Positions 40,105 through 58,040 are shown, counted from the stretch's first letter. The stretch is DNA of 64,000 nucleotides from Patescibacteria group bacterium (GCA_048499955.1 JASNYX010000001.1:2452-66451); one strand, 5' to 3'. Numbers and translations: made by a program. The notes: generated by a model not told the origin, from the letters alone.

Positions 40105-40728
40105 ATGAGGTCTGAGGATGGTGTTTACCATGGCTTATACATCGATATGACCCTTACTCTTGATTTTGTTCATCCTGCTAAGGTTGAGCTTTGGGAAGAA
40201 GATTTCCTCGGATTTGATGATCATTATTTCACAGTTTCAGACAGTTATAGCTTTCCTGATCAAAGAGCGTGTTTAGCTGCCCGGCTTTGCGGAACAGATG
40301 CTTGGATGGCCGGGGCTGACATTGAAGGTCCTGGTGGTCCGGGGGGGCCCGGAGGTCCGGGTGGTCCTCCGCCAGGAGATGGTGGTGATCCAAGCCCACC
40401 TGGGGGCGGTGGAGGAAATACTGGAGGTGCTCCGGAACTGAGTCTTATAGGTGGTTGTGGCCAAGGAGTGACAGTGACAGATGGAGAAGGCATTGTAGCT
40501 TGTGTAAAGGGTTGGAGTAAAAATCTGACGATTATACTCGTCGGACTTGGAATCGTAAGTGCGATCTTTATACTTCCTTGGATCGGGCTTCTTTATGCGA
40601 GCGGTAATCCCGGTAACTTCCAGAAGGCGAACGATATCCTTTTCTCGTGGATCTCGGGATTATTGTTGTTGGTATTGTCCGGTGCGATTATCACGATCGT
40701 AGGGAGAGATATTTTCGGTGCAACCTAA
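40105..40728 (+). CDS. Gly/Pro-rich linker protein with C-terminal VirB2-like two-helix pilin domain (no signal peptide of its own)
   Basis: GPGGPGGPGGPGGPPPGDGGDPSPPGGGGG linker, then LTIILVGLGIVSAIFILPWIGLLYASGNP...ILFSWISGLLLLVLSGAIITIV; the WIG motif is shared with the 43381 and 43843 paralogs. Confidence 0.55.
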   Translation: MRSEDGVYHGLYIDMTLTLDFVHPAKVELWEEDFLGFDDHYFTVSDSYSFPDQRACLAARLCGTDAWMAGADIEGPGGPGGPGGPGGPPPGDGGDPSPPGGGGGNTGGAPELSLIGGCGQGVTVTDGEGIVACVKGWSKNLTIILVGLGIVSAIFILPWIGLLYASGNPGNFQKANDILFSWISGLLLLVLSGAIITIVGRDIFGAT

Positions 40729-40801
40729 GGGTCTCCCCTTTTTAATGAACTCTTATTAACAAATTCATACCTCTTTCATATTGTTATGGTAGGTTTTTTC
40801 C

Positions 40802-41344
40802 ATGCCGGGAAAAAACCTTAAACGACAGCTATTACCAAATGGAATTTACCATGCTTATAATCGAGGCTTCGAAAAGCGAGAAGTATTCAAGGATGGTGCG
40901 GATTATTTAAACTATACTGAGCTAGTTAGACAGGAAATCATAAAAAATCCGGGAAAAGTCATCATATACGCATATTGTTTGTTGCCGAATCATTTTCATT
41001 TCTTAATAAAGCAGAGTAGTAAATATGATATGCCAAGGTTTATGCAGGTTGTGACCGCCGAATATACCCGCTATTTCAATCACAGATACAAACGTTATGG
41101 CAGATTATGGGAAAATGCATACCGTGCGGTACTGATTAAAGATCACTATCAATTTGTTACGGTGCAAAACTACATTCATCGAAATCCATCAGATATCACT
41201 GAAAATATAGAAAAATATCCGTATTCAAGTTACGGACACTATAAACATAGATTTAAACTGGATTTCATTAAAAAGGGGAGACCCCTAAGACCTCTATCGC
41301 CATCTACCGAGCCCCTATCATTTCCGAACCTCGATATTGAATAA
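40802..41344 (+). mobile_element. tnpA: IS200/IS605-family HuH (Y1) transposase TnpA, possibly RAYT-like (180 aa)
   Basis: YHAYNRG start, HuH motif LLPNHFHFLI, catalytic Tyr context VQNYIHRNP; 3' end overlaps the convergent SpoIID-like gene by 27 nt. Confidence 0.7.
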
Positions 41345-44417: not shown

Positions 44418-45497
44418 ATGAATAAAATTGCTTCACTTTTTATTATCAGTTTTATTTTCTTTGTAGCAATTGGGTTTCTCTTCAGAAATACTTGGAAAAA
44501 CAGCTTCCTTACAACTAACAATCAACCTCAGGCAATCTATTTTATACGAGATGGCGATCTGTGGTATTTGAATAAAGATACCTCTAATATTAATCAGATT
44601 ACTGATTTGGGTGGCATAGAAGAGTATTGGGTCTTTGAATCCGGAGCCGTCGTAATAAAACGTATTAACTATGAGTCTCATCGCCTAGTAGCGGAGCTTC
44701 TTTATTCTCAAGACAGTTTAAAAACATTTGAAGTAGTTGTTAATAAAACCTTTGAATTCAGTAATCGACCTGATGACATTTACCCCCATTTTGAATTTAA
44801 AGTTTCTGTTGCACCGGATGGGAATAGTTTAGTATATGGTGGTGATTTCTCAGATAGCCTTCAACTTTATGATTTACAAAAAAAATCCACGATTGATTTA
44901 CAACACAAATCGATCTTCGAGTTTGCCTTATCTCGCGATGGAAAGCGTTTAGCTTTTATCAAAGATGCAAACATTGAAGTCCTCGATTTGCCTACGGGTG
45001 ATCAACTTGCGAAAACCGAATTCATTCGCGGGAATGTTTCATACGAAAGTTTTATGAATCCTCAAAAATTAGTCGGATGGACAGCAGATGGGTTATCAGT
45101 CATTTACTTGCATGGTAATTATGGCCAAGGTATGCCTGTAAGTAAGTCAGTTCAGCATTTATATGCGTTTGATATTCCAAACAACCTAGTGCATAAGTTA
45201 AGTAAATCGGAAGAGGGACTGATCGATAACCCCACAAGTGATCTATCTATGGGCGGTTATCTCTACTATGTAACTAGTAAGGCTAATTTTCAGAAAAGTG
45301 CTTGGAGATTGAACTTGGATAATTACGAAATCGTAGAGGTTCCGGACCTAATTAATATGCAAGTTGTATTGAACTCGGGGCAAGGTCTAATTTTTTCGAA
45401 GAGAGGATTTGAAAATAATAGCCATGAAATTTGGAAGTCTGATCTGTTAGGTAAGAATGCCCAGATATTGATTGAGAACGGTACAATTTCGAAGTGA
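44418..45497 (+). CDS. Membrane-anchored beta-propeller-like (TolB/PD40-like) hypothetical protein
   Basis: N-terminal TM (ASLFIISFIFFVAIGFLF) then WD-like repeats; same architecture as the 2007-3326 protein; its 3' end is duplicated (degenerately) 5 kb downstream. Confidence 0.65.
   Translation: MNKIASLFIISFIFFVAIGFLFRNTWKNSFLTTNNQPQAIYFIRDGDLWYLNKDTSNINQITDLGGIEEYWVFESGAVVIKRINYESHRLVAELLYSQDSLKTFEVVVNKTFEFSNRPDDIYPHFEFKVSVAPDGNSLVYGGDFSDSLQLYDLQKKSTIDLQHKSIFEFALSRDGKRLAFIKDANIEVLDLPTGDQLAKTEFIRGNVSYESFMNPQKLVGWTADGLSVIYLHGNYGQGMPVSKSVQHLYAFDIPNNLVHKLSKSEEGLIDNPTSDLSMGGYLYYVTSKANFQKSAWRLNLDNYEIVEVPDLINMQVVLNSGQGLIFSKRGFENNSHEIWKSDLLGKNAQILIENGTISK
45385..45460. repeat. Left copy of an imperfect direct repeat (att-like) inside the 3' end of the 44418-45497 gene
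   Basis: gtctaattttttcgaa ... tggaagtctgatctgttaggtaagaatgc matches 50415-50490 (16/16 and 28/29 nt, same 47-nt spacing); weaker colinear similarity extends about 60 nt upstream. Confidence 0.55.
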
Positions 45498-45507
45498 AAA
45501 CAAGGTA

Positions 45508-46764
45508 TTATCGTCTTTGTAATAAGCTTTTTATTGAAGATAAGTCAAAACCTTTTTTCCCGGATTCGAGTTTCTGAATTTTTTGTAGTAACGTTCTTGC
45601 ATTAGGACTCCCATGCTCGCTATTTGCCCATGCTGTCGAAACTTCCTTTAGTCGCCCCTGTATCGCTTCCATTAGGTCTTCTTCTTTGAAAGATCTGCTA
45701 AAAGCGAATTTTTGAGCTTCTTCTGCTAAATATTGTCTTCTGACTTCAGGATCATCGCTATATAGATTCCGAAGGTAGTTTCCTATCGTGTAATCTTGGT
45801 CGCCATCTTGCTGTGTTCCATCCCCCATTTCGCTTATACCTTCAGATAATAAATGTAAAACCATTAAATTTACCCTGAATGGTTTGCCGTCTTTTCCGAT
45901 TACCGTAAAATCGGGGTTTTTAAAGATTCTGCCGAAATGAAACCCGCTGTTCAGAAATGGAGAGGGAATCCCATTTAGTTTTGTTACTCTTGAGTCTACA
46001 TGTCTAGCTTGACAACCTCTAGCGCTGAGTCTGTACCAATTGCTGGGATCGCTTTCAGTCCAGTTCATAATATCTGCAAGATGGTTTGCAATGAACTCCT
46101 GCTCATCGCCATATATGTTTACCGGATTTGTAAAGTTGATTTTTTTGTATTCTGCCCATAGTTGTTTATAAACAGCATTTATTTGAACTAATCGTGGATT
46201 CTTTTCCCGACTACTTGATCCATAGAGATTCTCGAGGGGATAGTCAAGGTTAGCCGCACACGCTCTAAGAAAATTAACCTTATGTTCGATATGCATAGGA
46301 AGAGCATAGTTGGAAGAAATGAGCATGCTTAATACGTCTTTCCTAAACTCGTCTGATTCTATTCTTTCATCTCCATACATTTCGGGATTCGCTCGCTGGA
46401 ATTCTTTAATCATATCGAGTTCCTCCTGTGTTAGGAATTTTCTTTGTCCATAATTTACGCCGTTAATGGTTACATTTAAGAGTGGTTTTTCAACACTAGG
46501 AAACGGGTAGTTGTTAAATACAAACCCGGCATTAAGTAGTTGCTCTCTTGTCAAATTGCCTATAGAAATGTCTTCTGCTGAAACTCCGGTTTCCAGTAAT
46601 GTAACGAATTCAGGATCATCTTTGGTGATTTTTCCTGAAGGTATTACTTCTAGAGGGTCGTGAGGTGGTTGGCTTTCTTGTATGACAAGCATTTCATAAA
46701 TACTATCTAGTGGGTTTTCGTTTAAATCCTCTTCTTCTAAGGTTTGGGGCAGATGGGTTGCCAT
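45508..46764 (-). CDS. Hypothetical protein (418 aa), first gene inside the putative inserted segment
   Basis: Long intact ORF, no recognisable catalytic motif (no tyrosine or serine recombinase signatures). Confidence 0.6.
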   Translation of the reverse strand: MATHLPQTLEEEDLNENPLDSIYEMLVIQESQPPHDPLEVIPSGKITKDDPEFVTLLETGVSAEDISIGNLTREQLLNAGFVFNNYPFPSVEKPLLNVTINGVNYGQRKFLTQEELDMIKEFQRANPEMYGDERIESDEFRKDVLSMLISSNYALPMHIEHKVNFLRACAANLDYPLENLYGSSSREKNPRLVQINAVYKQLWAEYKKINFTNPVNIYGDEQEFIANHLADIMNWTESDPSNWYRLSARGCQARHVDSRVTKLNGIPSPFLNSGFHFGRIFKNPDFTVIGKDGKPFRVNLMVLHLLSEGISEMGDGTQQDGDQDYTIGNYLRNLYSDDPEVRRQYLAEEAQKFAFSRSFKEEDLMEAIQGRLKEVSTAWANSEHGSPNARTLLQKIQKLESGKKGFDLSSIKSLLQRR

Positions 46765-47019
46765 AATGTTTTGCTGCTAATTTAGCTGAGATTTAAAACA
46801 ATCAGCTTAATATAAGCATTTAAATTATAACTCAAGTTTGATCTAATTAATTGAATTTCGCCACAAGTAGCTGTACAGCAAATTTATTATGGAATATAAT
46901 AATTGCCTGTATAAATTCCTTCCCTTAGAACGGAAATACTCGTAATATAGAGGATTCGACCCACAGTTATGGCTCAAGAATAACGACCTTAGACCTAGTG
47001 GACGTAATTAATAAATTAT

Positions 47020-48393
47020 ATGACAAGCAACGAAATTAAACAGAGACTCAAAGAATATTTTTCCTCATGCTCTGATATGAATTTAGTGAGCGTTTGTTTG
47101 ACAGGCTCGTCTTTAACTAAGCCCCTCTCTGAAGTGGGTGATATAGACTTGGCGTTTATCCTAAAAATAATAGACCATGAAAGTTTGGTACAACTTAGTG
47201 AATACATTTCAGATTTAGAAAAGATTTTTAACAAAAAAATTGGATTTAGTGTACTTTCTGAGGATGAAATTACAAGGGCTAGAGATACCGGCTACTTCCT
47301 TATTGAGGGAAGAAGTGCGAACTATGCAGACGATTTTAAGAATTGTGAAAGCGTTTATGGAGCTTCACTAGGCATAGAAAATATTGAGTTCAATAGTGAC
47401 CCAATAAGTTCCTACTCGAGTTTGAATCGGGTTTTTCATAATCTTGTAAAAGCCATTGTTGTAAAGAATCATGATATAAAAACAATCGAGAAACTAATAA
47501 CAAAGGCTATAAAAATAGTAAATTATAAAACTTTTCAAGATGAGTCAGATTTAAAAAAGCATAGGATAACTAATCAGGATTTTACCAGTGTGAAAGATAT
47601 TTTTTCTAATAAGAAGCAAGGGCAACAATTAGATTCAAAGGAAATTTCCTCTATTTTAAATTTCGTGAACAACCTGAGGACCTATTTGGCAGAAGATATT
47701 ACTAAGCAAAGCATATTTTCCTATGGTATACGTCCTAATAACCTGCCTCCTGAAACAAAATTTATTTTTATTTCGGGTGTAAATCTTTCGGGAAAGTCGA
47801 CTGTTTCACGCAAACTTGCCGGAATCTTAAATTACAATCTTATTCACCTTGACAGCATAAAAGATTCATACAAATCCGTGTACGATTTCCTTGAAATGAA
47901 CACCGTTGATGCTCATCAGGTTATGCCGCACCTTGAGGATTTGAACTTATCCCATGACCGGAAATTGATTCTTAGCTACCAACAAATCAGCAATATTCTT
48001 ATGTACCACCTGAGGTTAATGCTTAAGCCTCTGGCTGTTAAAGGGAAAAGTTGCATTATCGAAGGTTTACATCTTGATCCAGTCGGGCTTAAGTATTTTA
48101 CTGATTATTTCGAAAGCCAAGGAGTGGAAGTTCAAAAATATTATTTATCTACGGATATTCATGATGCATATCAAAATCTTGAACAACTGAAAAAAGAAAA
48201 TGCACCACATAGAGATTTTAAGAAATTCGAATATAAAATTTCCAAGGACAATCCTAATAATGTTTGGCTCATCGATAAACATTTTAAGGAAAGTGCCGAT
48301 AAATATGGCTGGCAGATAATTAAAAACCCACACGGATATTTAGATCAAACTATTTTCGACATTTATTCAAAGATAATATCTTTCCCCCGATGA
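47020..48393 (+). CDS. Fusion protein: N-terminal Pol-beta-superfamily nucleotidyltransferase (NTase) plus C-terminal P-loop (CoaE/PNK-like) kinase domain
   Basis: NTase motif GSSLTKPLSEVGDIDL (GS-x10-DhD); Walker A FISGVNLSGKSTVSRKLA, then IIEGLHLD. Confidence 0.7.
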   Translation: MTSNEIKQRLKEYFSSCSDMNLVSVCLTGSSLTKPLSEVGDIDLAFILKIIDHESLVQLSEYISDLEKIFNKKIGFSVLSEDEITRARDTGYFLIEGRSANYADDFKNCESVYGASLGIENIEFNSDPISSYSSLNRVFHNLVKAIVVKNHDIKTIEKLITKAIKIVNYKTFQDESDLKKHRITNQDFTSVKDIFSNKKQGQQLDSKEISSILNFVNNLRTYLAEDITKQSIFSYGIRPNNLPPETKFIFISGVNLSGKSTVSRKLAGILNYNLIHLDSIKDSYKSVYDFLEMNTVDAHQVMPHLEDLNLSHDRKLILSYQQISNILMYHLRLMLKPLAVKGKSCIIEGLHLDPVGLKYFTDYFESQGVEVQKYYLSTDIHDAYQNLEQLKKENAPHRDFKKFEYKISKDNPNNVWLIDKHFKESADKYGWQIIKNPHGYLDQTIFDIYSKIISFPR

Positions 48394-49433
48394 TGAAATT
48401 AGAATCAATAGATCTGGGCAACTACAACTCTGAATTAATAGAACCACCGATTCCTATTAATCCCCTTAATCGCCATGAAACATATGTTTATAAATTAATT
48501 ACCACGAACGGTGTCTTTGCGTTATATGTTTCAAATCGATTACCAAAATTTCCCCATACTCAGGAGTATTTATCAGAAATAATAGAATCCAATTTCCCGA
48601 AAATAAAAACACCAACTTATATAAAGTCATTTAATGGAGATTTTTATATAGAAAAGATAGTGGATCAACAAACATATTATTTAAGTGTCAAAAAGTGGAT
48701 CGATGGAAATCCCTACACAAATAAGCTCAGCGAGTTGAAAAATTCGGCACAAGCTCTTGCTTCCATACATGGTGTCTCTGCAGATTATAGAATCGACAAA
48801 GATCTTTCATTAAAAAATAAAAGCGGATTAAATAAATCATTTTCACTTGGATCTGATATGCTCTTTATCGAGTATCTGGACCTTTTTTTATCAAAACATC
48901 GTAAATCTAATCGTGTATGTAGCTGGATAGAAAAAAATAAGAAAACTTTAATAAAAGAGTGGCAAGAGTGCATAAGTTTTTACAACGCAGACATATATTC
49001 GAAGCTCCCACGAGGTATACTTCATGGCGATTTTACTCCGCAAAATATTTTATTTGAAAATGATTTTGTTGTAGGAGTTCTTGATTTCAACTCCATCAAA
49101 TACGATGCGTACTTACGGGAAATCGTTTGGTCTGCTTTGACATTCTCGCAAAGTAAAAGTTCCTCGAGCACGTTGAGTTTTGAGAGATTCGCAACCTTTA
49201 TTAAGGAGTATGTTCGTATGGCAGAGAATTCGGATTCTTACTCCGATGATTATCTTGATTATTGTTATGAGGTTTCTATTTCCAGATGTTTGAAAGTTTT
49301 TAAGAATTTGATAAAGAAGGACGTAACCGACTCATGGTACTTGTCGGAATATCTTGAAGGAAATATGAGAAATATTGATTTTCTACTTACAGAACGAAGC
49401 CGGATTTCCTGTCGGAAGAATTATTCCAGATAA
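48390..49433 (+). CDS. Aminoglycoside phosphotransferase (APH)/choline-kinase-fold phosphotransferase
   Basis: Brenner motif ILHGDFTPQNILF and VVGVLDFNS (DxD metal-binding); 4-nt overlap with the upstream fusion gene (operon). Confidence 0.7.
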   Translation: MMKLESIDLGNYNSELIEPPIPINPLNRHETYVYKLITTNGVFALYVSNRLPKFPHTQEYLSEIIESNFPKIKTPTYIKSFNGDFYIEKIVDQQTYYLSVKKWIDGNPYTNKLSELKNSAQALASIHGVSADYRIDKDLSLKNKSGLNKSFSLGSDMLFIEYLDLFLSKHRKSNRVCSWIEKNKKTLIKEWQECISFYNADIYSKLPRGILHGDFTPQNILFENDFVVGVLDFNSIKYDAYLREIVWSALTFSQSKSSSSTLSFERFATFIKEYVRMAENSDSYSDDYLDYCYEVSISRCLKVFKNLIKKDVTDSWYLSEYLEGNMRNIDFLLTERSRISCRKNYSR

Positions 49434-49447
49434 GTAATATTGGTAAA

Positions 49448-49699
49448 GTGAAAATTATTGAAGTGGGGGATGACTCTTTAACAATAGATGTTATTGAGGA
49501 TCAGAGCTTTGATGGGGAATTTTATCCGAGAATCCCTGTCGATAGATTATTAATTAAAGATGAAATTTGCACTTCAGGGTTCCCGCTTGCAATGGATGTT
49601 GAGTATGATTATTGTTTTAACATTGAGAATCAGGGTGATATTATCGCTTTAAAATATATAATCCAAGGAAGAAGTACTTTTCCTAACCCTAATCGGTAA
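49448..49699 (+). CDS. Small hypothetical protein (83 aa), third gene of the NTase-kinase operon
   Basis: Starts 14 nt after the upstream stop; acidic; no motif. Confidence 0.4.
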   Translation: MKIIEVGDDSLTIDVIEDQSFDGEFYPRIPVDRLLIKDEICTSGFPLAMDVEYDYCFNIENQGDIIALKYIIQGRSTFPNPNR

Positions 49700-49959
49700 C
49701 TTTTTATTGAAGAAGATTATGATTTTAACAAAAAAAGACCTGTGAAGGGCTTTTATGGTGGGGAGTCTAGACGACCATTGGAATCAAATAGCTGAGTTCA
49801 GTTATGGGCCAGAGGATGTTTGTGAAATAGAAAAAATGTCCAATAGTGATCTGCTTTGTATATGAAGAGTCGATTTGACTCTAATACTTAGCTTTTCACT
49901 AGCAAGGACTTGGTTTTACCCAAGTGTTGGACAGACGTCCTTGCCTTTGTCGATACTAA

Positions 49960-50170
49960 CTACAGATCTTCGATCCAGGTGAAGTCGAATGAATAGCCCT
50001 CTGGGGGTGAGCCCGCAGCTTTCTTCAGCGGCTTTTCTGGGTCATTGACCCAGAAGGGAACCTGGTAGGTTCCTTTGTCAATTTCATGAACGATGGGGTA
50101 TTGCCCATCACTTTCTCGAGGCCCGTACTTCCGAAAGAAGACCTTGTAGGTACTATTTTTATTAGCCATG
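49960..50170 (-). CDS. Small hypothetical protein (70 aa) with a strong Shine-Dalgarno sequence
   Basis: aaggag 6 nt upstream of the ATG at 50170 (MANKNSTYKVFF...). The track ORF extends to 50217, but the SD supports the internal start. Confidence 0.5.
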
Positions 50171-50350
50171 TTTTCTCCTTTTTGGCTAATTACAGCATGA
50201 AAAATCGACCCGCTCATTTTATCCTATAGTAGTTAGTTTTTCAATTGGGAAATAGGTTCAATGTTTTAGAGTGTTTAGCGGTAATGCCTGAACTGATACC
50301 ACATACGTAGGTCAAATTTACAGAAAAGTACTTGGAAACTAAGTTAAGAA

Positions 50351-50503
50351 AATTTCGAAATGGAAGAAGTATCAGGATTGGCTAATGTTAAGTATGTTTC
50401 TAGTGACGATAATAGTCTAATTTTTTCGAAAACCGATGCTTTAAACCAACCCACTTAGATATGGAAGTCTGATCTGTTAGGTAGAAATGCTGAAATTGTT
50501 TAG
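50351..50503 (+). pseudogene. Decayed duplicate of the 3' end of the TolB-like gene (right att-like repeat); no intact reading frame
   Basis: Colinear similarity to 45321-45460 with two near-identical blocks (50415-50430, 50462-50490); lies in a 525-nt gene-free stretch. Confidence 0.5.
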
Positions 50504-50742: not shown

Positions 50743-51810
50743 ATGGATAGACAGACTCCGCTTGTGCAATTGTTAAAGTCAACCAGCACTATAATTCCCT
50801 CATCAAATAACGCTAATCTTGATACTTTTATGTTCGAAACCCCTCTATTGGCAGAGCTGACTAAAAAGATAACAGAACTATATAAAGATGATCTTGTTTT
50901 CGCATTATTATTTGGGTCTAGAGTAGATGGTGAGTTTAAACAAAACAGTGATTACGATATTTTGATTGTTGAGAAGTCTCCCTATAAAGATCAATCTAGA
51001 CACGAACAAATAAAGAGGATTTTTATAGAGTTACAGGAAAAGGAAGAGTTGAAGGTTGATTATGATTATCCCGGGGAATACATAGATATTTTTACATTGA
51101 ATAAAGCTATTTTAGGTTACGGTTTTGTTTATGACGATAAAGAAGTCATCATTGAGAAAGTCGGAGCAAAAGACTGGAATAGATTTAATGAATATAGGCA
51201 ATGGTTATCTGCAATGTCAGGCCCCAACATATTATTGGCCGGAAATATAAAAGATTTTGTTGAATATAAAGAGCGGGCAATTAAAACTTTAATCAAACTA
51301 GTGATTTGTAAAAGGGACTTTACTTTTAAAGACTCGAGTGAATTAGTAGATCTGCTTGTTTTGGGTGGGAAAGAGTACTTGGGTATGAAAAATATACCGA
51401 GTGTCAGAAAATACCTCGAGGATCTTATTGAATTAGTTCTCCATGAATTAATTCAAGAAAACATAATAATAAAAGGGGATAACAAATTCCATGTTAATTT
51501 TGAAATATGTGTAAAATCTATTGAGCTATTAATATCTACAGATGAAAACGAATTTCGTAAAAGTTTTTTTGGGGGTATTACGGATTTTGATAAACAAGTA
51601 ATCACTGATGTGGTATCAGATAATCTGAGTTATGTTAGTAGTTTGAATAAGACTATCGACTACAGGTCAGATAAAGATTTACAAGAAGATATTTCTGAAG
51701 ATTTGCCAATGGACGCAACTGGACATTATAATGTTCAGAAACAATACGCTTCAATTCGGTTAGAAATACAAAATATAAATCAAACCGTCCGGGATATTGC
51801 TTTTTCCTGA
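50743..51810 (+). CDS. Nucleotidyltransferase-domain protein (MNT/KNTase-like NTase with ~200-aa C-terminal extension)
   Basis: LLFGSRVDGEFKQNSDYDILIV (GS-x9-DhD). Confidence 0.7.
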   Translation: MDRQTPLVQLLKSTSTIIPSSNNANLDTFMFETPLLAELTKKITELYKDDLVFALLFGSRVDGEFKQNSDYDILIVEKSPYKDQSRHEQIKRIFIELQEKEELKVDYDYPGEYIDIFTLNKAILGYGFVYDDKEVIIEKVGAKDWNRFNEYRQWLSAMSGPNILLAGNIKDFVEYKERAIKTLIKLVICKRDFTFKDSSELVDLLVLGGKEYLGMKNIPSVRKYLEDLIELVLHELIQENIIIKGDNKFHVNFEICVKSIELLISTDENEFRKSFFGGITDFDKQVITDVVSDNLSYVSSLNKTIDYRSDKDLQEDISEDLPMDATGHYNVQKQYASIRLEIQNINQTVRDIAFS

Positions 51811-53056
51811 TGGAAATTCTATCTCAGGATTAGTCGGAAACATCAATGAAATCTTTGCGAATCAGAATCTTATTGCTACAACAAAGAGCGCTCCAAGTGG
51901 TACTTTTGTTGAAATACAAACTATTGAATGGTTCAGGAAACTAGTTGGGTATCCTGTTATTGGGAGACCTGAGGATGCATTAGGTGCCGGCGGAGCATTT
52001 GTATTTGGAGGTACTATGGCAAACACTATCAGCTTAATGGCTGCTAGAGAAAAAGCCTTTCCCGGATGCAAGAAAAAAGGGCTAACTTCATTTAATGAAA
52101 AGCCTGTTCTATTAGTCGCTGAAAATACAATTAATCATTATTCACATGCAGGCGCTTTTGGTTGGCTAGGATTAGGTGAGGACAATATTGTTGAAGTATC
52201 GATTACAGAAGACTTTAGGCTTGATCAAAACGATCTTAAAAAGAAACTGAAAAAATATAAAAATGACTCAGGTTATAAAATAATTGCATTAGTAGCTCAA
52301 GCGGGAGATTCCAGAACAACAACTATTGAAGACTTCGACGCAATTTCAAAGATAACCAAACAATTTGGTGTATGGTTACATGTTGATGCTTGTCATGGAG
52401 GAGTTTTGATCTTTTCGAATAAACATAAACACAAATTAAAGGGAATGGAATTGGCCGATTCCATTAGTATGGATCCTCATAAAGGTTTGGCAGTTACGTA
52501 TCCCGCAAGTCTTGTACTGGTTAAAGATAGAGAAAGTTTGGGTCTTATTGCAAAACATACTGATATTACAATTAATAAAGGGAGCTTTGATCTTGGTCAA
52601 ATGACGCCAATGATTGGAAGTAAGCCATTTATTGCTTTGAAATTATGGTTTTTGATTAAATCGTTGGGAATCAAAAATATCGGTAAAATAATTGATTCAA
52701 GAATGGATCTAGCTCAGAGTTGGAAAAGGAAAATAGATGACTCGAAATATTTCAGATCGCTAAATGACATTGAATTAAATAGTGTCGTTTTTAGTTTATG
52801 CCCGAAAAAGATTAAGACTATTGATGATTCGAAAAAACTTAGTGAGTTAAATAAAGCACTTCATGACGCTGTCTATAAAGATGGTTATATGTGTATACAC
52901 AATTTTGATATTGTTGATTACAAAAATGTTTTGAAGTTTGGAAAAGTTAAAATCAGAACGTTAGGTGCAATTTTTGGGAATCCGTTAACGGATGAATATG
53001 ATTTCAATGCATATATTAATTATTTAGAATCTGTAGCAGAGAGATATATAAGATGA
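51797..53056 (+). CDS. Pyridoxal-phosphate-dependent group II amino-acid decarboxylase
   Basis: FGGTMANTISL, HVDACHGG, and the PLP-lysine motif SISMDPHKGL. Confidence 0.8.
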   Translation: MLFPDGNSISGLVGNINEIFANQNLIATTKSAPSGTFVEIQTIEWFRKLVGYPVIGRPEDALGAGGAFVFGGTMANTISLMAAREKAFPGCKKKGLTSFNEKPVLLVAENTINHYSHAGAFGWLGLGEDNIVEVSITEDFRLDQNDLKKKLKKYKNDSGYKIIALVAQAGDSRTTTIEDFDAISKITKQFGVWLHVDACHGGVLIFSNKHKHKLKGMELADSISMDPHKGLAVTYPASLVLVKDRESLGLIAKHTDITINKGSFDLGQMTPMIGSKPFIALKLWFLIKSLGIKNIGKIIDSRMDLAQSWKRKIDDSKYFRSLNDIELNSVVFSLCPKKIKTIDDSKKLSELNKALHDAVYKDGYMCIHNFDIVDYKNVLKFGKVKIRTLGAIFGNPLTDEYDFNAYINYLESVAERYIR

Positions 53057-53967
53057 TTATTATCACCCCATATCATGCCAAAAAAAATCATCATGACTTT
53101 GGTAAAAGACAAAAATATTTAACAGAAACAATTAGCTCAATTGACAAACAAAATCTTCACAGCTTAACTCATATCATTGTTGATGACGGTAGTACTGATA
53201 ACTTTTGCGACACAATTAAAACTGTTTATACCACCACAGAGAGAATTTGGCTTAGGCGTGAAAAACTAGCGGGTGAAATTCTAACTTGCACAAATGCGTT
53301 AAATTTCGGAATCAAATATATCTTAGATAATCCAGACCGATTTAAAGATAGCGAACTCGTAACATTTATTCACTCTGATGATTTAGCCATTAGCCTAGGC
53401 GATCGAGAAGATTTTATGGTTAGGAATAATCTGGATTTTATGTATTCGGATGCATTGATATTCTTTGATGATCGTGAGTATGGCTTTTTATGGGAAGGTT
53501 TACCGATTAATACAAATAACATCGAGAAAAAACTTTGGATTCAAGGGAGAATGCCATATATAACAATGACTTGGAAGCTTTCGCTAGTAAAAGACCTAAT
53601 AAAACAGAATAAGCAAAAATACGCACAGGAAGCTCTTCTTGACCCTTATGTTGGTTGTGGAGAGGATGTCGATCTTGCAATTAATACATTGAAGTTCATA
53701 GAAGATAGTGAATACAAGGGAGGGTATTTGCCTGAAATTACTGCGGCTTACAGAATTCATGGTAAATCATTAGCAGAAATACGTGATCAAAAAATCAGAA
53801 AGAATGAAGAAAATTCTGTTCTTCAAAAACATTTCGGAAGACATAGTATTAAGTTGCTTCATATTCAAAGATTTATAAATAGGCCTTGGTTGTACTTTCC
53901 TCTTTTCAGAAAGTTTAAGAAATCAATTAAATTGAAAGTTAGTGATTATTTACACAAAAATGCATAA
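53053..53967 (+). CDS. Family 2 glycosyltransferase
   Basis: SLTHIIVDDGSTDN (GT2 DDGSTD motif), DxD-like HSDD; 4-nt overlap with the decarboxylase. Confidence 0.8.
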   Translation: MIIITPYHAKKNHHDFGKRQKYLTETISSIDKQNLHSLTHIIVDDGSTDNFCDTIKTVYTTTERIWLRREKLAGEILTCTNALNFGIKYILDNPDRFKDSELVTFIHSDDLAISLGDREDFMVRNNLDFMYSDALIFFDDREYGFLWEGLPINTNNIEKKLWIQGRMPYITMTWKLSLVKDLIKQNKQKYAQEALLDPYVGCGEDVDLAINTLKFIEDSEYKGGYLPEITAAYRIHGKSLAEIRDQKIRKNEENSVLQKHFGRHSIKLLHIQRFINRPWLYFPLFRKFKKSIKLKVSDYLHKNA

Positions 53968-54946
53968 ACAATATTTACTCATAAGTTTCTTTGTTACGAA
54001 TCCCGATGCACTTGCGAAACTTAAAGCTCAGTGGTTGGGTAATGAAGAACAGAAAGACAGAAAATTTCTCGGACGTTCAGAAGAGGAAACTGCTGAAGTT
54101 ACGAACGAGCAGTTAGGTGGAAAAGTGATTTTAGTTGATCCCGAGAATTTTGAGAGAGGCATATTGCACGAAATAGATATTCCGGTTCCTATGGGATTGG
54201 TTTTCGATGAAAGAAGTAATAGTTTATTGGTTACTAGTGACTTTGATGTTTATAGCTTATCGAAAGGAAATTATAAGACGCATATATCCAATGGGTTGTT
54301 TAATAATTTGCACAGTATTTCAGTAAATAATCATGGAGATTTATTAGTTACATCTACCGGCCTTGATTCCATCTTGCAATTTGATTCGGAATCAAAAGAC
54401 TTAAAATGGAAATGGTTAGGTACTCATAATGGTTATAATAAGACTCCGGAAGGAGAAGGAGTAATGCCTATCGATGAAACATTCGATTATAGAAATAGAA
54501 CTATCGCAACTTCTGATCAAACCACTCATGTAAATAGCGCAATATTCGAAAATGATTATATTCTTGCAACTTTTTTCCATCAGGGAGAATTGGTCAAAAT
54601 AGATACAAATACCGGTAAAGTGAGCACGATTCTTGGGAACATGAAGTCTCCGCACGCTATAAGAAAAACCGATTTTGGTTATTCAGTTGTTGATACCAGA
54701 AACAACAAAGTAATGCTTTTAGATCATGAGTTCAAAATTATAAAAGAGATTTCAAATGACTATGATTGGGTGCAAGATGCGATTGAAATCGACAATCAGT
54801 TTTACATTGCTGATGCAAATAATGGAAATATCGAGAAAGTTGACTTGGATGGCATCAGTAAAGCAAAGTTCGTGTGGGATCCAAACTCTTGGAAAGTCGG
54901 TGGTTTAGCAACATTAGATGCTGATAAGATTGATTTGGTATTTTAA
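53960..54946 (+). CDS. Beta-propeller (NHL/SMP-30-like) hypothetical protein
   Basis: Repeated blade-like segments (LLVTSTGLDSILQFD; YIADANNGNIEKVD); start taken at MHKQYL (the track starts at 53942). Confidence 0.6.
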   Translation: MHKQYLLISFFVTNPDALAKLKAQWLGNEEQKDRKFLGRSEEETAEVTNEQLGGKVILVDPENFERGILHEIDIPVPMGLVFDERSNSLLVTSDFDVYSLSKGNYKTHISNGLFNNLHSISVNNHGDLLVTSTGLDSILQFDSESKDLKWKWLGTHNGYNKTPEGEGVMPIDETFDYRNRTIATSDQTTHVNSAIFENDYILATFFHQGELVKIDTNTGKVSTILGNMKSPHAIRKTDFGYSVVDTRNNKVMLLDHEFKIIKEISNDYDWVQDAIEIDNQFYIADANNGNIEKVDLDGISKAKFVWDPNSWKVGGLATLDADKIDLVF

Positions 54947-54951
54947 GTAGT

Positions 54952-56031
54952 TCAAAAATAGCTTGTCCATTTTTTGGCGATGATATCCCAACTTTCTTGC
55001 ATTGCACTTTTAATAAATACATTTCGTAATGAGTTTTTATCTTTTTGATTATAAATTTGAGGAAGGTTGTTGTTTTTTATGAAATCAATAATTGTGTATG
55101 CAAGTTTTTGCTGAGTATTTTGATCAAATGGATTTCCATCAACTTTAATACTGTAATCTTTTTCGGATAAAGCCGCCCAATTTGTTGTAAATGGTATACA
55201 CCCTGCCATTGCTGCTTGTCGAACAGTAATGCAGTCTATTTCCAACATTGTACAACCATAATATAAAATATTCGCTTTGTGGTTAGCTTCAATTAGTGTT
55301 TCTATTCCAACGCGACCATATTCAGTAATACCCGGTTGATTCATAAGGTCAATCATTTTTGCTTTCCATTTTTGTTTTTCAATATCATTGCTGTAAACAG
55401 CGTTAAATAAATCCCAACCATAATATATATCCAGCGTGATATCGGGTAGTTCCTTTTTTAAAATCGGCCATCCGTATGTAAGCATATACTCAAGGCCACG
55501 GTAATAGCTTGAAGCATAGATTAATTTTTTTGGGTCACGATTAACGTGATTTGTGCTTGCAAATTTAACATCTGCTCCATTGGGAATTATTACAAACTTT
55601 TCTTCGGGAATTAAAGGTAATAAGTTTCTTTGGAATTCAGATTTAACAAAAATTCTATCAATCTTGTCTAATCTATTTTGTGTATACTCCTCTTGCTGTG
55701 GAGTGTCGTGCAAATCAAGAATAAGTAGGGATGCAGATAAGTTCATATCTACGAAACTGGGTTCTCTCCATAGTATTAGTATGTTGTATTTATCTTGAGG
55801 ATTAAATTTCTTGTAATCATAATATGTAATACCTTCGTATATACCTTCATGTTGTCCAATATTGCTGTATACTGTTACTTCGTACCCGAGAGATTTCCAA
55901 ATTTTTGATAGGTAAATTACCGCAGTTTGAGATCCTCCAAGACCGGTTTTTAACGAATTGGGAGACCAGTATTCTGATGTTTCCCCAGTGTAGTAGACGA
56001 TGGAATTTTTCGGCCAAATTTTTTGAGTCAT
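54952..56031 (-). CDS. GT-B fold (GT4-like) glycosyltransferase
   Basis: C-terminal EYGRVGIETLIEANHKANILYYG...AAMAGCIPFTT nucleotide-sugar-binding pattern; start taken at MTQKIW (the track's 56088 start overlaps the divergent gene). Confidence 0.65.
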   Translation of the reverse strand: MTQKIWPKNSIVYYTGETSEYWSPNSLKTGLGGSQTAVIYLSKIWKSLGYEVTVYSNIGQHEGIYEGITYYDYKKFNPQDKYNILILWREPSFVDMNLSASLLILDLHDTPQQEEYTQNRLDKIDRIFVKSEFQRNLLPLIPEEKFVIIPNGADVKFASTNHVNRDPKKLIYASSYYRGLEYMLTYGWPILKKELPDITLDIYYGWDLFNAVYSNDIEKQKWKAKMIDLMNQPGITEYGRVGIETLIEANHKANILYYGCTMLEIDCITVRQAAMAGCIPFTTNWAALSEKDYSIKVDGNPFDQNTQQKLAYTIIDFIKNNNLPQIYNQKDKNSLRNVFIKSAMQESWDIIAKKWTSYF

Positions 56032-56041
56032 AGATTTTCTA

Positions 56042-56983
56042 TTGAATAAGTATAATACCTCAATGCAAATTAACAATTTAGAAAACAAGATAAAAAATTT
56101 GATATCGAAGACTCACCCCGAACTTTCATTGTCGGAAGTTATCAAAATGTCGTTAGGTATATCTACAAATGTATACAGGCTTAGTACTTCTGATGGAATT
56201 TATTATTTCCGAATTCCGAAAAACATTAATGAAAATATTTCCGGTGAAGTATTAATTTTGCAAAGATTGCAAGAGAAAGGAATGAAAGTTCCAAAAGTAA
56301 TCGGCCATGAAAACTTTTGTCACGAATTAGATGGGTATTCATACTATATAACTTCCGAAATTAAAGGTACTCCAATTGATAACACAAATAGGGATACGGT
56401 TTTACATGATGCAGGTTCTCAGCTTGCATTGTTAAATTCGATTGAATATCCGGGATTTGGTGGTATAACCAGATATCAGGAAAATATTGAATCTGTAAGT
56501 GGACATTTAAATTCATATAGTGATTTCATTCTCTATAAATGGGAAAGTCACTTAAATAAATTGCAAAATAAAGGTATCCTTTCTGACAACAAAATAGTTT
56601 CGATTACAAAATTGCTCCGTGATAATCACGATTTCTTTAATCAATTGCAGGGATACTTAATGCACGGAGATCTTAATGTTAATCACATTTATTCACACAA
56701 GGGAAATTTTTCGGGATTTATTGATTTTAGTGATTGCAGAATTGCAAATAAATTTTTTGATTTAGCCTATTTCAAGATTTGTAACCGGGAAGACTTCGCT
56801 TCATTAGTAAATGGTTATGCAAAAGTTAATCCACAGATATTAAATGAAATTAATGGTCTAGACTTTTTAATTACTACTTTAATTGTTGGTATAAGAATTG
56901 TTTCTTCGCTAATTGATAATGAACAAGATTTGGTGAAAGTTTCTCAGGTTAGAAGTCTGATTTTAGAGCTTGATTCTATATAG
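56042..56983 (+). CDS. APH/choline-kinase-fold phosphotransferase (second copy in region)
   Basis: YLMHGDLNVNHIY and GFIDFSD motifs. Confidence 0.7.
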   Translation: MNKYNTSMQINNLENKIKNLISKTHPELSLSEVIKMSLGISTNVYRLSTSDGIYYFRIPKNINENISGEVLILQRLQEKGMKVPKVIGHENFCHELDGYSYYITSEIKGTPIDNTNRDTVLHDAGSQLALLNSIEYPGFGGITRYQENIESVSGHLNSYSDFILYKWESHLNKLQNKGILSDNKIVSITKLLRDNHDFFNQLQGYLMHGDLNVNHIYSHKGNFSGFIDFSDCRIANKFFDLAYFKICNREDFASLVNGYAKVNPQILNEINGLDFLITTLIVGIRIVSSLIDNEQDLVKVSQVRSLILELDSI

Positions 56984-57025: not shown

Positions 57026-57430
57026 TGGTGGAGATGGGGGGAATCGAACCCCCATGCTAAAAGCTTAATCAAATAAAAGTTACATGCTTAACGGTTTTAA
57101 TAATTTGTATATTCTGGAAAACCGTAAAATTAATATACAAATTTGATAATTTTTCTCTGATTTGGTTGGCCTGACAAGTGATTGATCAGAGGAACTTCCT
57201 TTAAAATGCCCGAGGGCAAAAAAAAGGGAAACGCGAGGTTTCTCTTGTCAAACTGCTGAATAAGGATAAATCCGTTTGTAGTGGCTAACTTATGCTATCG
57301 CGTAAGCGGGCACCATTACATCAGCATATTCATCTGCATTGTTTGCATTTATATTTTTGACAGTTTTAAGACTTAACGGTCTGCATGTTCTATTTGAAAT
57401 GTACTTCTAGGCGATGCCTGAAACATCCCC
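57026..57430 (-). ncRNA. ssrA: tmRNA (SsrA), about 405 nt
   Basis: Minus-strand 5' GGGGAUGUUUCAGG... and 3' ...GGGGGUUCGAUUCCCCCCAUCUCCACCA (T-arm plus encoded CCA). The 7-bp acceptor stem includes the G3-U pair. Putative tag ORF GCA AAC AAU GCA GAU GAA UAU GCU... resembles E. coli ANDENYA. smpB lies immediately upstream. Confidence 0.8.
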
Positions 57431-57536: not shown

Positions 57537-57989
57537 CTAGTTATAGCGGTTTTTTACAGTTTTGCGGATTTCTTTTTCTTGTTGCTTTTTGATCAGATCT
57601 TGTTTCTTCTGGTGCTTTTGTTTGCCTCTTGCTAGCCCTGCAAGGAGTTTTAGAAGTCTTCCCTGGGTGTATATTTTTAAAGGTACTAAGGTGAATCCTT
57701 TTTGCTCGATTTTTCCTGAAAGGCTTTTTATTTCCTCTTTGTTTAATAGTAGCTGCCTGGATCTTACCGGATCATAGTGGAATAATGCTGCCGCTTTAGA
57801 ATATTTAGGTAAATTGAAATTCACCAAATACGGCTTGCCTTTGGTGATTCTAATATAGGCACCTCTTAGCGATCCTCGGCCTTCTTTTATAGATTTAACC
57901 TCATGACCCTGGAGTTTCATTCCGGCTTCGATCTTCTCCACGACTTCATAGTCCCTATAAGCTTTTCGGTTTACTATATATACTGGCAT
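57537..57989 (-). CDS. smpB: SsrA-binding protein SmpB
   Basis: MPVYIVNRKAYRDYEVVEKIEAGMKLQGHEVKSIKEGRGSL is the SmpB N-terminal signature; the track ORF begins 5 codons upstream at a TTG (58004). Confidence 0.85.
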   Translation of the reverse strand: MPVYIVNRKAYRDYEVVEKIEAGMKLQGHEVKSIKEGRGSLRGAYIRITKGKPYLVNFNLPKYSKAAALFHYDPVRSRQLLLNKEEIKSLSGKIEQKGFTLVPLKIYTQGRLLKLLAGLARGKQKHQKKQDLIKKQQEKEIRKTVKNRYN

Positions 57990-58040
57990 GTGCTGATTAT
58001 ACAAGGGAAAGGCCCAATATTATACCGTTATGGAGGAGCC

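Follow-up and report, generated by a model that had tools for sequence, protein, structure and literature searches.

NTases (nucleotidyltransferases) of the ANT(3'')/ANT(9)/AadA and Lnu types have a GS-x10-DxD motif, a conserved glutamate ~40 residues further on, and a core that is followed by a helical domain. Kinases with the APH fold, such as AmiN, APH(9), choline kinase, and type II homoserine kinase, are recognizable by a beta3 lysine, an HGDxxxxN motif, and the aspartate of a DF(N) motif. Some APH-fold kinases act on peptides, as is the case for class V lanthipeptide kinases. Two group-transfer activities can also be joined in one protein that acts on one small molecule, as in NadR, HldE, PAPS synthase, CoA synthase, and AAC(6')-APH(2''). 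The combination of a kinase-NTase fusion with translational coupling is typical of consecutive pathway steps (HldE, NadR, PAPSS, COASY). A further group of kinases, of the COG2074 type, includes 2-phosphoglycerate kinase (2PGK), mevalonate-3-phosphate 5-kinase (M3P5K), and plant LPA1. Members of this group phosphorylate small phospho-metabolites (PMC5177888, PMC6417671, PMC10690619), and the activity of M3P5K has been described (PMC5177888). Here, we describe a pair of overlapping genes that appears to bring all three of these superfamilies together. The pair lies in a 64,000-nt stretch of DNA, which we refer to as "the window." Its most likely role is the modification of a small molecule, not phage defense.

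Layout of the locus

The features of the locus, in window coordinates, are:

45267..45470, + strand: intact 3' end (codons 284-351) of the beta-propeller gene at 44418-45497; left bracket of the inserted segment
45508..46764, - strand: orphan gene, 418 aa, on the inserted segment, divergent from gene 1
46765..47019, no strand: intergenic region between the divergent orphan and gene 1, containing a promoter candidate (-35/-10) at 46872-46900
47020..48393, + strand: gene 1, a 457-aa ORF; predicted Pol-beta NTase + helical domain + P-loop kinase fusion
47020..47274, + strand: predicted NTase core of gene 1, residues 1-85
47275..47739, + strand: helical middle domain and linker of gene 1, residues 86-240; no family match
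47740..48393, + strand: 2PGK-like P-loop kinase domain of gene 1 (predicted), residues 241-457
48390..49433, + strand: gene 2, a 347-aa ORF; predicted APH-fold kinase, sharing ATGA with the end of gene 1
49448..49699, + strand: gene 3 candidate, 83 aa, acidic, GTG start codon; unproven as a member
49960..50169, - strand: ORF of 69 aa within the inserted segment, of atypical base composition and preceded by a Shine-Dalgarno site
50297..50500, + strand: pseudogene relic of the beta-propeller gene end; right bracket

Translation of the ORFs places the 4-nt overlap between genes 1 and 2 at ATGA, such that the fusion is translationally coupled to the gene for the APH-fold kinase. All three ORFs, the overlap, and every motif quoted in a preliminary description of this DNA are found at the coordinates given there. 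Genes 1 and 2 are beyond chance, because they are long ORFs in DNA of 34% GC and have homologues (37% identical for gene 1 and 30% for gene 2) with invariant catalytic residues. Upstream of gene 1, a promoter-like sequence (TGTACA-17-TATAAT) occurs without excess over shuffle expectation, and there is no riboswitch or structured leader (no Rfam match, no stable fold).

Gene 3 starts 14 nt past the gene 2 stop codon and encodes a protein with a pI of 4.1 (16 D+E vs 7 K+R). It is a singleton cluster with no family match in Pfam, PADLOC, NCBIfam, or PHROG, and no similar ORF follows the APH gene in one of the other loci described below (L001). Antisense ORFs as long as 100-160 aa often arise spuriously in the window. 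For these reasons, gene 3 does not rise beyond chance on its own, and it is an unsupported singleton ORF. The three-gene operon proposed in the preliminary description is thus reduced to a conserved unit of genes 1 and 2.

An inserted segment

The pair sits on a segment of ~4.8 kb. On one side of it is the 3' end of a beta-propeller gene, and on the other is a decayed relic of that gene end. The relic corresponds to the last 68 codons (tblastn E 1.5e-12, 46% identity) and has two in-frame stops. The cores of the brackets at the DNA level are a 16-nt exact match and a 32-nt match with 91% identity, at a spacing of 5030 nt. Since a relic of the same gene end lies at the far side, the relic supports insertion of the segment, as the preliminary description had suspected. 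The GC content of the segment is slightly under that of the window. The segment lies near the tmRNA gene; a tmRNA-targeted island was considered and rejected, as neither an integrase nor a repeat of the tmRNA 3' end was found.

Two further genes share the segment. The 418-aa orphan has no match in Pfam, NCBIfam, PADLOC, PHROG, or the PDB. The 69-aa ORF, likewise with no family matches, has a GC content of 0.49 and a GC3 of 0.57, vs ~0.38 and ~0.33 for the window, and is preceded by an AAGGAG motif; most genes in the window have no Shine-Dalgarno sequence. This near absence of Shine-Dalgarno sites, a DUF5657 match, and the many orphan genes are the only hints of a CPR/Patescibacteria-type genome.

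Further downstream, between 50.7 and 57 kb, is a cluster encoding an ANT-like NTase, a group II PLP decarboxylase (Pfam E 2.6e-48), a GT2 glycosyltransferase, a propeller protein, a GT4 glycosyltransferase, and an APH(3')-like kinase. The genes of this cluster have a low GC content similar to that of the pair. Between the two lie the gene relic, a 1-kb gap, and the foreign-looking ORF on the opposite strand. We considered whether the downstream NTase and PLP decarboxylase are one frameshifted fusion, and rejected this, as joining the frames left the Pfam match unextended.

The NTase half of gene 1

The N-terminal half of gene 1 contains the motif LTGSSLTKPLSEVGDIDL, i.e., G29 S30, ten residues, and D41-I-D43-L in the translation, which fits the Pol-beta superfamily pattern hG[GS]-x9-13-Dh[DE]h. 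E83, 40 residues past D43, is likely the third catalytic carboxylate. In an alignment of the three known fusions (see below), G29, S30, D41, D43, and E83 are invariant. An AF2 model of the protein (pLDDT 71) has three domains, the first of which is an alpha-beta-alpha-beta-alpha-beta core (helix 3-15, strand 22-28, helix 29-32, strand 42-48, helix 53-70, strand 74-80) with pLDDT 80-91. The assignment of a Pol-beta-type NTase in the preliminary description is therefore borne out by the invariant motif and the predicted core.

Profile matches to this half are faint. The window protein matches NTP_transf_2 (E 0.0075, 17.1 bits; gathering score 21) and Polbeta (E 0.029, 15.0 bits; gathering score 26.9) in Pfam, and one homologue, P0006, reaches 25.0 bits against the 26.9 cut-off. 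The best NCBIfam match of the NTase half is MntA (E 0.0016-0.0044, 16.9-18.3 bits; cut-off 60). P0006 matches ANT(9) (E 3.2e-5) and AadA (E 1.4e-3). The curated NCBIfam score for ANT(3'')/ANT(9) lies far above this (23.3 vs 340 bits for P0006), and the window protein is absent from the matches to these models. By sequence, the NTase is best described as a divergent Pol-beta member, placed at the superfamily level only.

The middle domain is helical in the model (residues 128-235), with low confidence for residues 90-126. Six of its residues (Y102, F106, Y113, G114, R137, and H140) are invariant across the three fusions. A kinship between this NTase and the downstream NTase at 50743-51810 was considered and rejected, as their alignment is limited to the GS...DxD core.

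The kinase half of gene 1

The Walker A motif of gene 1, GVNLSGKST, spans residues 253-261 (G253-T261), and IIEGLHLD spans residues 346-353. The domain also has D278-S279 and an E348-G349-x-H-L-x-P354 motif. Full-domain matches to the NCBIfam 2-phosphoglycerate kinase models (PRK04220/PRK12337, COG2074) were obtained for P0006 (1.6e-10) and for the proteins P0002 (1.4e-8) and P0007 (1.5e-28). The kinase domain from the window itself matches with E 0.01, covering residues 10-212 of 218. This domain and the homologues P0006 and P0002 are all far under the equivalog cut-off of 343 bits, at 15-41 bits. P0006 also matches M3P5K (E 6.5e-5). All other profile matches of the kinase domain are confined to the P-loop, including a weak one to Zeta_toxin (E 0.024). 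CoaE (TIGR00152/PF01121), GrpB (PF04229), and PNK are absent from the Pfam and NCBIfam matches; for the isolated domains, this holds for all matches with E <=10. The preliminary description was thus right about a P-loop kinase, and its label "CoaE/PNK-like" was dropped in favor of 2PGK-like, given the full-domain matches. The domain is probably related to 2PGK at the family or superfamily level and is no orthologue.

The matches of gene 1 to NTP_transf_2, AAA_33, and 2PGK all fall under curated thresholds. Its putative placement in these families is based on motifs, the fold of the model, and transitive links through matches of its homologues.

Gene 2 encodes a predicted APH-fold kinase

Gene 2 passes the Pfam APH family (PF01636) with E 9.5e-11 and 42.3 bits vs a gathering score of 23.2. 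The motifs LHGDFTPQN (H212, D214, N219) and LDFN (D232) are complete, the beta3 lysine is K35, and all five of these residues are invariant between gene 2 and the APH protein of L001. We conclude, as did the preliminary description, that gene 2 encodes an APH-fold kinase, with what appears from its sequence to be a complete set of catalytic residues.

Named APH subfamilies are another matter. The best NCBIfam match is homoserine kinase PRK05231 (E 6.4e-11), at 41.8 vs 271 bits and over the catalytic core, and APH(3')-I scores 12.7 against 400 bits; gene 2 reaches no NCBIfam curated cut-off for APH(3'), homoserine kinase II, CotI, or Mph. With Foldseek, the best matches of the gene 2 model are the amicoumacin kinase AmiN, APH(9), and choline kinases. 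This is a low-confidence model (pLDDT 51), too low to place the protein in a subfamily. With gene 2 as the profile query, 5.8 billion proteins gave only the one partner-linked homologue.

A rare pair with conserved coupling

When 1.84 billion representative proteins were searched exhaustively with HMMER, only two copies of the fusion were found besides that in the window. Other searches were word-indexed searches, scans of genomes, metagenomes, and viral contigs, and tblastn against plasmids and phages. All searches together yielded the same two extra loci, both on short contigs, and the family has three members in ~15 billion predicted proteins. P0006 shares the domain architecture of gene 1, as does the L001 fusion once its NTase portion is restored across a homopolymer frameshift.

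In each locus, a second gene overlaps the end of the fusion. In L001, the overlap is 14 nt and the gene encodes an APH protein 30% identical to gene 2. In L003, the overlap is 8 nt, and the encoded N-terminus is collinear with gene 2 and keeps the beta3 lysine. The gene at the end of the fusion is a confirmed APH homologue in L001 and a probable one in L003. The flanking genes are unrelated among the three loci. Genes 1 and 2 thus form the conserved unit, since an end-overlapping partner is present in all three loci while the flanks differ. The other two loci are on contigs of 2.3-3.7 kb, such that "self-contained" refers to their upstream flanks and 165 nt downstream. Upstream of the fusion in L001 is a Cys-rich 89-aa ORF. 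A 243-aa protein also encoded upstream in L001 was considered as NDK-like; Pfam and the PDB gave no support.

Both the fusion and its coupling to gene 2 therefore stand as originally described. The view that the pair cannot be assigned to a described system also holds: no Pfam, NCBIfam, PADLOC, or PHROG family covers it at a curated level, and only three members are known. Resistance families likewise give no match at curated cut-offs.

Possible functions

The three ATP/NTP-dependent transferase sites of genes 1 and 2 are predicted to be intact, with catalytic residues kept in the only known relatives. We lean slightly toward the view that the two genes are a self-contained, horizontally moved cassette, with three predicted active sites working on one hydroxyl-bearing small molecule. 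In such a scheme, the APH-fold kinase would transfer a first phosphate onto a hydroxyl of the substrate, the 2PGK-like domain would add a second phosphate, and the NTase domain would transfer an NMP onto the same molecule, at either a hydroxyl or a phosphate. The 2PGK-like domain is cast as the second kinase because its characterized relatives (2-phosphoglycerate kinase and M3P5K) phosphorylate metabolites that are already phosphorylated; the order of the three reactions is purely one that we infer. Our preferred version is the inactivation or salvage of an external polyol-type compound, e.g., an aminocyclitol- or aminoglycoside-like xenobiotic. This appeals to us more than a step of some larger biosynthetic pathway, because the cassette is accessory, very rare, and self-contained, and because characterized relatives of two of its domains modify antibiotics (ANT, APH, AmiN). 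Two considerations count against inactivation: we know of no 2PGK-type kinase that is a resistance enzyme, and three modifications of one xenobiotic exceed the normal need for detoxification.

Given the genes at 50.7-57 kb, the cassette may have a role in biosynthesis or envelope decoration. It would then make a nucleotide-activated, phosphorylated head group, with which the neighboring glycosyltransferase/decarboxylase cluster decorates the envelope. Either the kinase would act before the NTase, as for HldE and NadR, or adenylylation would precede phosphorylation, as in PAPS and CoA synthesis. By analogy with those enzymes, the kinase-NTase fusion and the coupling would fit consecutive pathway steps, and an NTase, a decarboxylase, glycosyltransferases, and an APH-type kinase are encoded directly downstream at a similarly low GC content. 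However, the separately bracketed 4.8-kb segment sets the cassette apart from that cluster, its neighbors are unrelated in the two other loci, and no ANT-type Pol-beta NTase is known to us to make NDP-activated precursors. We consider this role unlikely. A housekeeping enzyme in disguise, such as a dephospho-CoA kinase fusion of the GrpB-CoaE type or a PNK that heals RNA ends, is far less probable still and is effectively refuted. Over their full length, the domains match no profiles other than those of 2PGK-type kinases, and CoaE, GrpB, and PNK are absent from the searches described above. Moreover, the gene is on an inserted segment, and a family of only three members in ~15 billion proteins is incompatible with a core function. 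Neither of the signs that the preliminary description named as fatal to its proposal is seen: GrpB and CoaE give no match, and the acidic residues of the NTase are intact and conserved.

The preliminary description also raised a role in defense. As a new anti-phage or abortive-infection module, the pair would use its NTase to produce a nucleotide signal or to modify nucleic acid or tRNA, with the kinases as effector or regulator. The pair is indeed rare and accessory, on an inserted segment near tmRNA, and Pol-beta NTases and kinases are present in many defense systems. Weak PADLOC matches to VakA (9.4e-5, 43 residues) and PDC-S09 (0.0096) involve only the P-loop and the NTase core. Nonetheless, we found no positive evidence for defense. 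There is no significant match to PADLOC-DB v2.0.0, which covers systems described up to 2023, among the three genes and 15 neighboring proteins, save for the downstream NTase, which matches the candidate model PDC-S09 over its core only (6.9e-12, residues 34-103). A scan of ten flanking proteins gave no match at all. There is no match in PHROG or, by tblastn, in phages or plasmids. The proteins lack nuclease, TIR, SIR2, transmembrane, and other effector domains, and the kinase resembles metabolite kinases more closely than PNK. No defense genes lie nearby, and the surroundings do not form a defense island. A defense function is therefore improbable. We give a similarly low probability to a protein- or peptide-directed system, in which, as in a toxin-antitoxin-like pair, an MntA-like NTase neutralizes a kinase toxin, or a small protein (possibly the gene 3 product) is AMPylated or phosphorylated. 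Its attractions are that MntA is the best NCBIfam match of the NTase half, that Zeta_toxin weakly matches the P-loop, that a small acidic ORF follows the pair in the window and the Cys-rich ORF precedes the fusion in L001, and that peptide-acting APH-fold kinases exist. On the other side, the MntA score is far under the 60-bit cut-off, the NTase carries a helical domain of ~150 aa that sets it apart from minimal MNTs, gene 3 is not conserved, the Zeta_toxin match extends no further than the P-loop, and there is no HEPN, lyase, or cyclase partner.

In the boldest form of the small-molecule reading, which we regard as decidedly doubtful, the pair would be a new, self-contained system of three active sites that yields a nucleotide-linked, doubly phosphorylated product by a PAPS/CoA-like logic, and would represent new antibiotic or toxin inactivation, signaling, or defense chemistry in ultra-small CPR-type bacteria. 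If active, the proteins would represent a new architecture, with an ANT-type NTase fused to a 2PGK-type kinase and an APH-fold partner, and probably a chemistry, of substrate or of product, that is new to three large superfamilies of transferases. An active cassette might also show how bacteria with reduced genomes handle exogenous compounds. With three copies known, its practical weight is limited.

Comparison with known systems

The NTase half of gene 1 resembles the ANT(3'')/ANT(9)/AadA and Lnu enzymes in its motif, in the position of its glutamate, and in having a helical domain after the core. It differs in that the helical domain has no detectable similarity, the module is fused to a kinase, and the score is 23 vs 340 bits. 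As for the type VII toxin-antitoxin system MntA/HepT, the MntA score is under its cut-off and there is no HEPN gene in the segment. The kinase half has GKST, DS[IL][KR], and EG[VLI]HLxP in common with 2PGK-like P0007. It differs from the 2PGK family in having no ATP-cone and in being fused to an NTase, and its host appears to be a mesophilic bacterium of the CPR type and neither an archaeon nor a plant. Gene 2 has the beta3 lysine, HGDxxxxN motif, and DF(N) aspartate of AmiN, APH(9), choline kinase, and type II homoserine kinase, whereas it reaches the cut-off of no named subfamily. As a whole, the pair may be likened, by analogy, to NadR, HldE, PAPS synthase, CoA synthase, and AAC(6')-APH(2'') in joining group-transfer activities that would act on one small molecule. 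In NadR, HldE, and the PAPS and CoA synthases, however, the NTase is of the Rossmann HxGH type or an ATP sulfurylase and the kinases are of other families; the NTase here is of the Pol-beta type, and there is no sequence relationship between the two.

A rare two-gene unit

ORF calling and translation bore out the coordinates, the start/stop overlap and the motifs given in the preliminary description:

47020-48393, gene 1, 457 aa
48390-49433, gene 2, 347 aa; ATGA shared between its start and the gene 1 stop
49448-49699, gene 3, 83 aa; GTG start, 14 nt 3' of gene 2

In gene 1, the nucleotidyltransferase (NTase) motif consists of G29-S30, 10 residues, and D41-I-D43, and the kinase motifs are GVNLSGKST (residues 253-261) and IIEGLHLD (346-353). 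Gene 2 encodes LHGDFTPQN (211-219) and LDFN (231-234). The gene 3 product is acidic (pI 4.1), as had been stated.

Among 5.8 billion clusters, a word-indexed search returned only the gene 1 protein itself and one relative. Exhaustive HMMER searching of 1.84 billion representatives at 50% identity gave five matches in total: the gene 1 protein, P0002 (37% identity to gene 1), P0006 (25% identity, equal length, same architecture), and two proteins with the kinase domain alone in common. As called, P0002 has 381 aa and lacks the NTase part; its NTase core (GLTGSGTFKPIDEIGDIDL) is encoded immediately upstream in a different frame, with an A8 homopolymer between, so each of the three loci conserves the fusion that had been proposed for gene 1. 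In the Logan contig of the P0002 locus (L001, 1185-1425), the A8 run (ATGAAAAAAAACTC) puts the NTase part out of frame with the ATG, so the gene caller gave a truncated protein; this is a true frameshift or else a homopolymer error in the assembly.

The partner gene accompanies the fusion. In L001, an APH gene overlaps the fusion end, and its product shares 30% identity with that of gene 2 across 323 residues (E 4e-40), with K35, H212, D214, N219 and D232 invariant. In the third locus, L003, the downstream gene overlaps the fusion by 8 nt, and the 70 residues available from it are collinear with both APH N-termini, including the beta3 lysine, making it a probable APH homologue. Because the three loci have unrelated genes 5' of the pair, and neither L001 nor L003 contains sequences like gene 3 or like two other ORFs near the pair (a 418-aa orphan and a 69-aa ORF), the conserved unit is genes 1 and 2. 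The proposed three-gene operon is supported for this pair and not for gene 3, which forms a singleton cluster and had no match in any profile library searched. Spurious ORFs of 100-160 aa are frequent in the window, and gene 3 is a candidate ORF and an unproven, candidate cassette member.

L001 has no open frame in the 165 nt past its APH gene. Two ORFs lie 5' of its fusion homologue, at 3-272 (89 aa) and 458-1189 (a 243-aa orphan), neither with a match in Pfam or PDB. The 89-aa product is acidic, and its terminal tail (CNCDCPRCDIGAHCSGCSWWD) is rich in Cys, which recalls the precursors of modified peptides.

Domains of the encoded proteins

Pfam matches to gene 1 were all sub-threshold: residues 7-82 matched NTP_transf_2 (E 0.0075) and residues 249-393 matched AAA_33 (E 3e-4). 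In an AlphaFold2 model built from an alignment of four sequences (pLDDT 71), residues 1-85 form an alpha-beta-alpha-beta-alpha-beta NTase core (pLDDT 80-91), residues 128-235 a helical domain and residues 247-452 a Rossmann-like P-loop domain.

The kinase domain had been described as CoaE- or PNK-like. The NCBIfam 2-phosphoglycerate kinase (2PGK) model PRK04220 matches the entire kinase domain of P0006 (E 1.6e-10), P0002 (1.4e-8) and the 2PGK-like relative P0007 (1.5e-28), and 203 of 218 residues of the isolated window domain (E 0.01); P0006 also matches mevalonate-3-phosphate 5-kinase. Since all other matches of the isolated window domain are confined to the ~30-residue P-loop, the kinase is, by profile comparison, 2PGK-like (COG2074 type), not CoaE- or PNK-like. 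Even at E up to 10, isolated domains matched no GrpB, CoaE or PNK family, which removes a GrpB-CoaE or similar housekeeping enzyme. Residues G258-K-S-T261, D278-S279, E348-G349, L352 and P354 are invariant in the three fusions.

The NTase half most resembles antibiotic-type NTases and minimal MNTs: that of P0006 matches ANT(9) (E 3.2e-5) and AadA (1.4e-3), and that of the window matches MntA (E 0.0016), all far under curated cut-offs. G29, S30, D41, D43 and E83 are invariant in the three fusions, so that the acidic residues of the NTase are retained. E83 lies 40 residues past the DxD, which we take to be the spacing of the catalytic base in ANT enzymes. Gene 2 matches Pfam APH above the gathering score (E 9.5e-11), and amicoumacin kinase and APH(9) rank first against its low-confidence model. 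The suggested ANT/APH-type resemblance is upheld for the NTase half and gene 2 as nearest relatives, and no resistance family was matched at a curated cut-off, which excludes a named resistance enzyme.

Genomic setting

The description of the surrounding DNA as an inserted segment is supported by a gene end and its decayed relic, which bracket ~4.8 kb (45498-50296):

45267-45470, last 68 codons of a beta-propeller gene (C-terminus of gene 44418-45497)
49960-50169, minus strand, 69-aa ORF (MANKNSTYKVFFRKYGPRESDGQYPIVHEIDKGTYQVPFWVNDPEKPLKKAAGSPPEGYSFDFTWIEDL); GC 0.49, GC3 0.57
50297-50500, pseudogene relic of the beta-propeller gene end; tblastn E 1.5e-12, 46% aa identity, two in-frame stops

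Exact or near-exact DNA cores of gene end and relic are spaced 5030 nt apart. The segment contains the 418-aa orphan gene (minus strand), genes 1-3 and the 69-aa ORF, which has no family match, has one of the window's few clear Shine-Dalgarno sequences (AAGGAG) and looks foreign to its surroundings by composition. The GC content of genes 1-3 (0.34-0.35) differs weakly from that of most of the window (~0.38-0.41). Recombination likely introduced the cargo along with a diverged version of the gene end; alternatively, the relic may be an old, decayed tandem paralogue.

Other features of the window are as follows:

40802-41344, IS200/Y1-type transposase gene (Pfam Y1_Tnp E 2e-12)
40726-40752 / 41261-41287, associated 27-nt inverted repeats, 93% complementary
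57026-57430 and 57537-58004, both minus strand, tmRNA gene next to smpB; tag peptide ANNADEYADVMVPAYAIA

The tmRNA gene lies 7 kb away and directly adjoins a low-GC cluster; a search of the window turned up neither an integrase nor a repeat of the tmRNA 3' end. Comparison with PHROGs, phage genomes and plasmids gave no match, arguing against a phage or plasmid element. The gene 1 leader has no Rfam family or unusually stable fold, so riboswitch control was rejected. The window looks to be from a reduced, orphan-rich genome and is consistent with a CPR/Patescibacteria type, given DUF5657, ComF-like, FtsH, SmpB and tmRNA genes, the near absence of Shine-Dalgarno sites (most genes have none) and several very large orphan proteins (e.g., 1345 aa, with a C-terminal M23 peptidase, and 1227 aa).

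Possible function

The two genes of the cassette are translationally coupled and move together as a unit, and between them they carry three transferase active sites, all intact. A single hydroxyl-rich small molecule may be the substrate of all three: the APH-fold enzyme would add a first phosphate, the 2PGK-like domain a second, in keeping with its family's phospho-metabolite substrates, and the ANT-like domain an NMP. We favor the view that the cassette modifies an exogenous compound, either inactivating or salvaging it, since it is an accessory and extremely rare unit that seems not to depend on its neighbors, since antibiotic-modifying enzymes are the nearest relatives of two of its domains, and since amicoumacin kinase and APH(9) lead the matches to the low-confidence gene 2 model.

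The main rival is biosynthetic activation tied to the adjacent glycosyltransferase cluster. This low-GC cluster (50743-56983) encodes a second ANT-like NTase (355 aa), a PLP decarboxylase, GT2, a propeller-like protein, GT4 (minus strand) and an APH(3')-like kinase, and may serve to tailor the envelope or small molecules. The group II decarboxylase is PanP/DABA-decarboxylase-like, has a TTG start, lacks the first ~44 Pfam positions and overlaps the NTase gene by 14 nt; a single frameshifted NTase-decarboxylase fusion was tested and found no support. A defense role, to which the preliminary description had likened the cassette, is less likely: PADLOC-DB v2 models matched it only locally, at the P-loop or NTase core, ten further flanking proteins matched nothing there, and the downstream NTase (50743-51810) gave only a core-restricted match to candidate model PDC-S09 (6.9e-12). 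Protein-directed activity and a housekeeping role are also less likely than modification of an exogenous compound. The preliminary observation is confirmed, and its interpretation is partly supported.

Characterized members of the 2PGK family phosphorylate small metabolites in which a phosphate is already present, i.e., 2-phosphoglycerate (PMC10690619) and mevalonate 3-phosphate (PMC5177888); plant LPA1, a weak homologue, is implicated in phytate synthesis (PMC6417671). The fusion-plus-partner architecture, which as far as could be tested has not been described previously, is built from well-known superfamilies.
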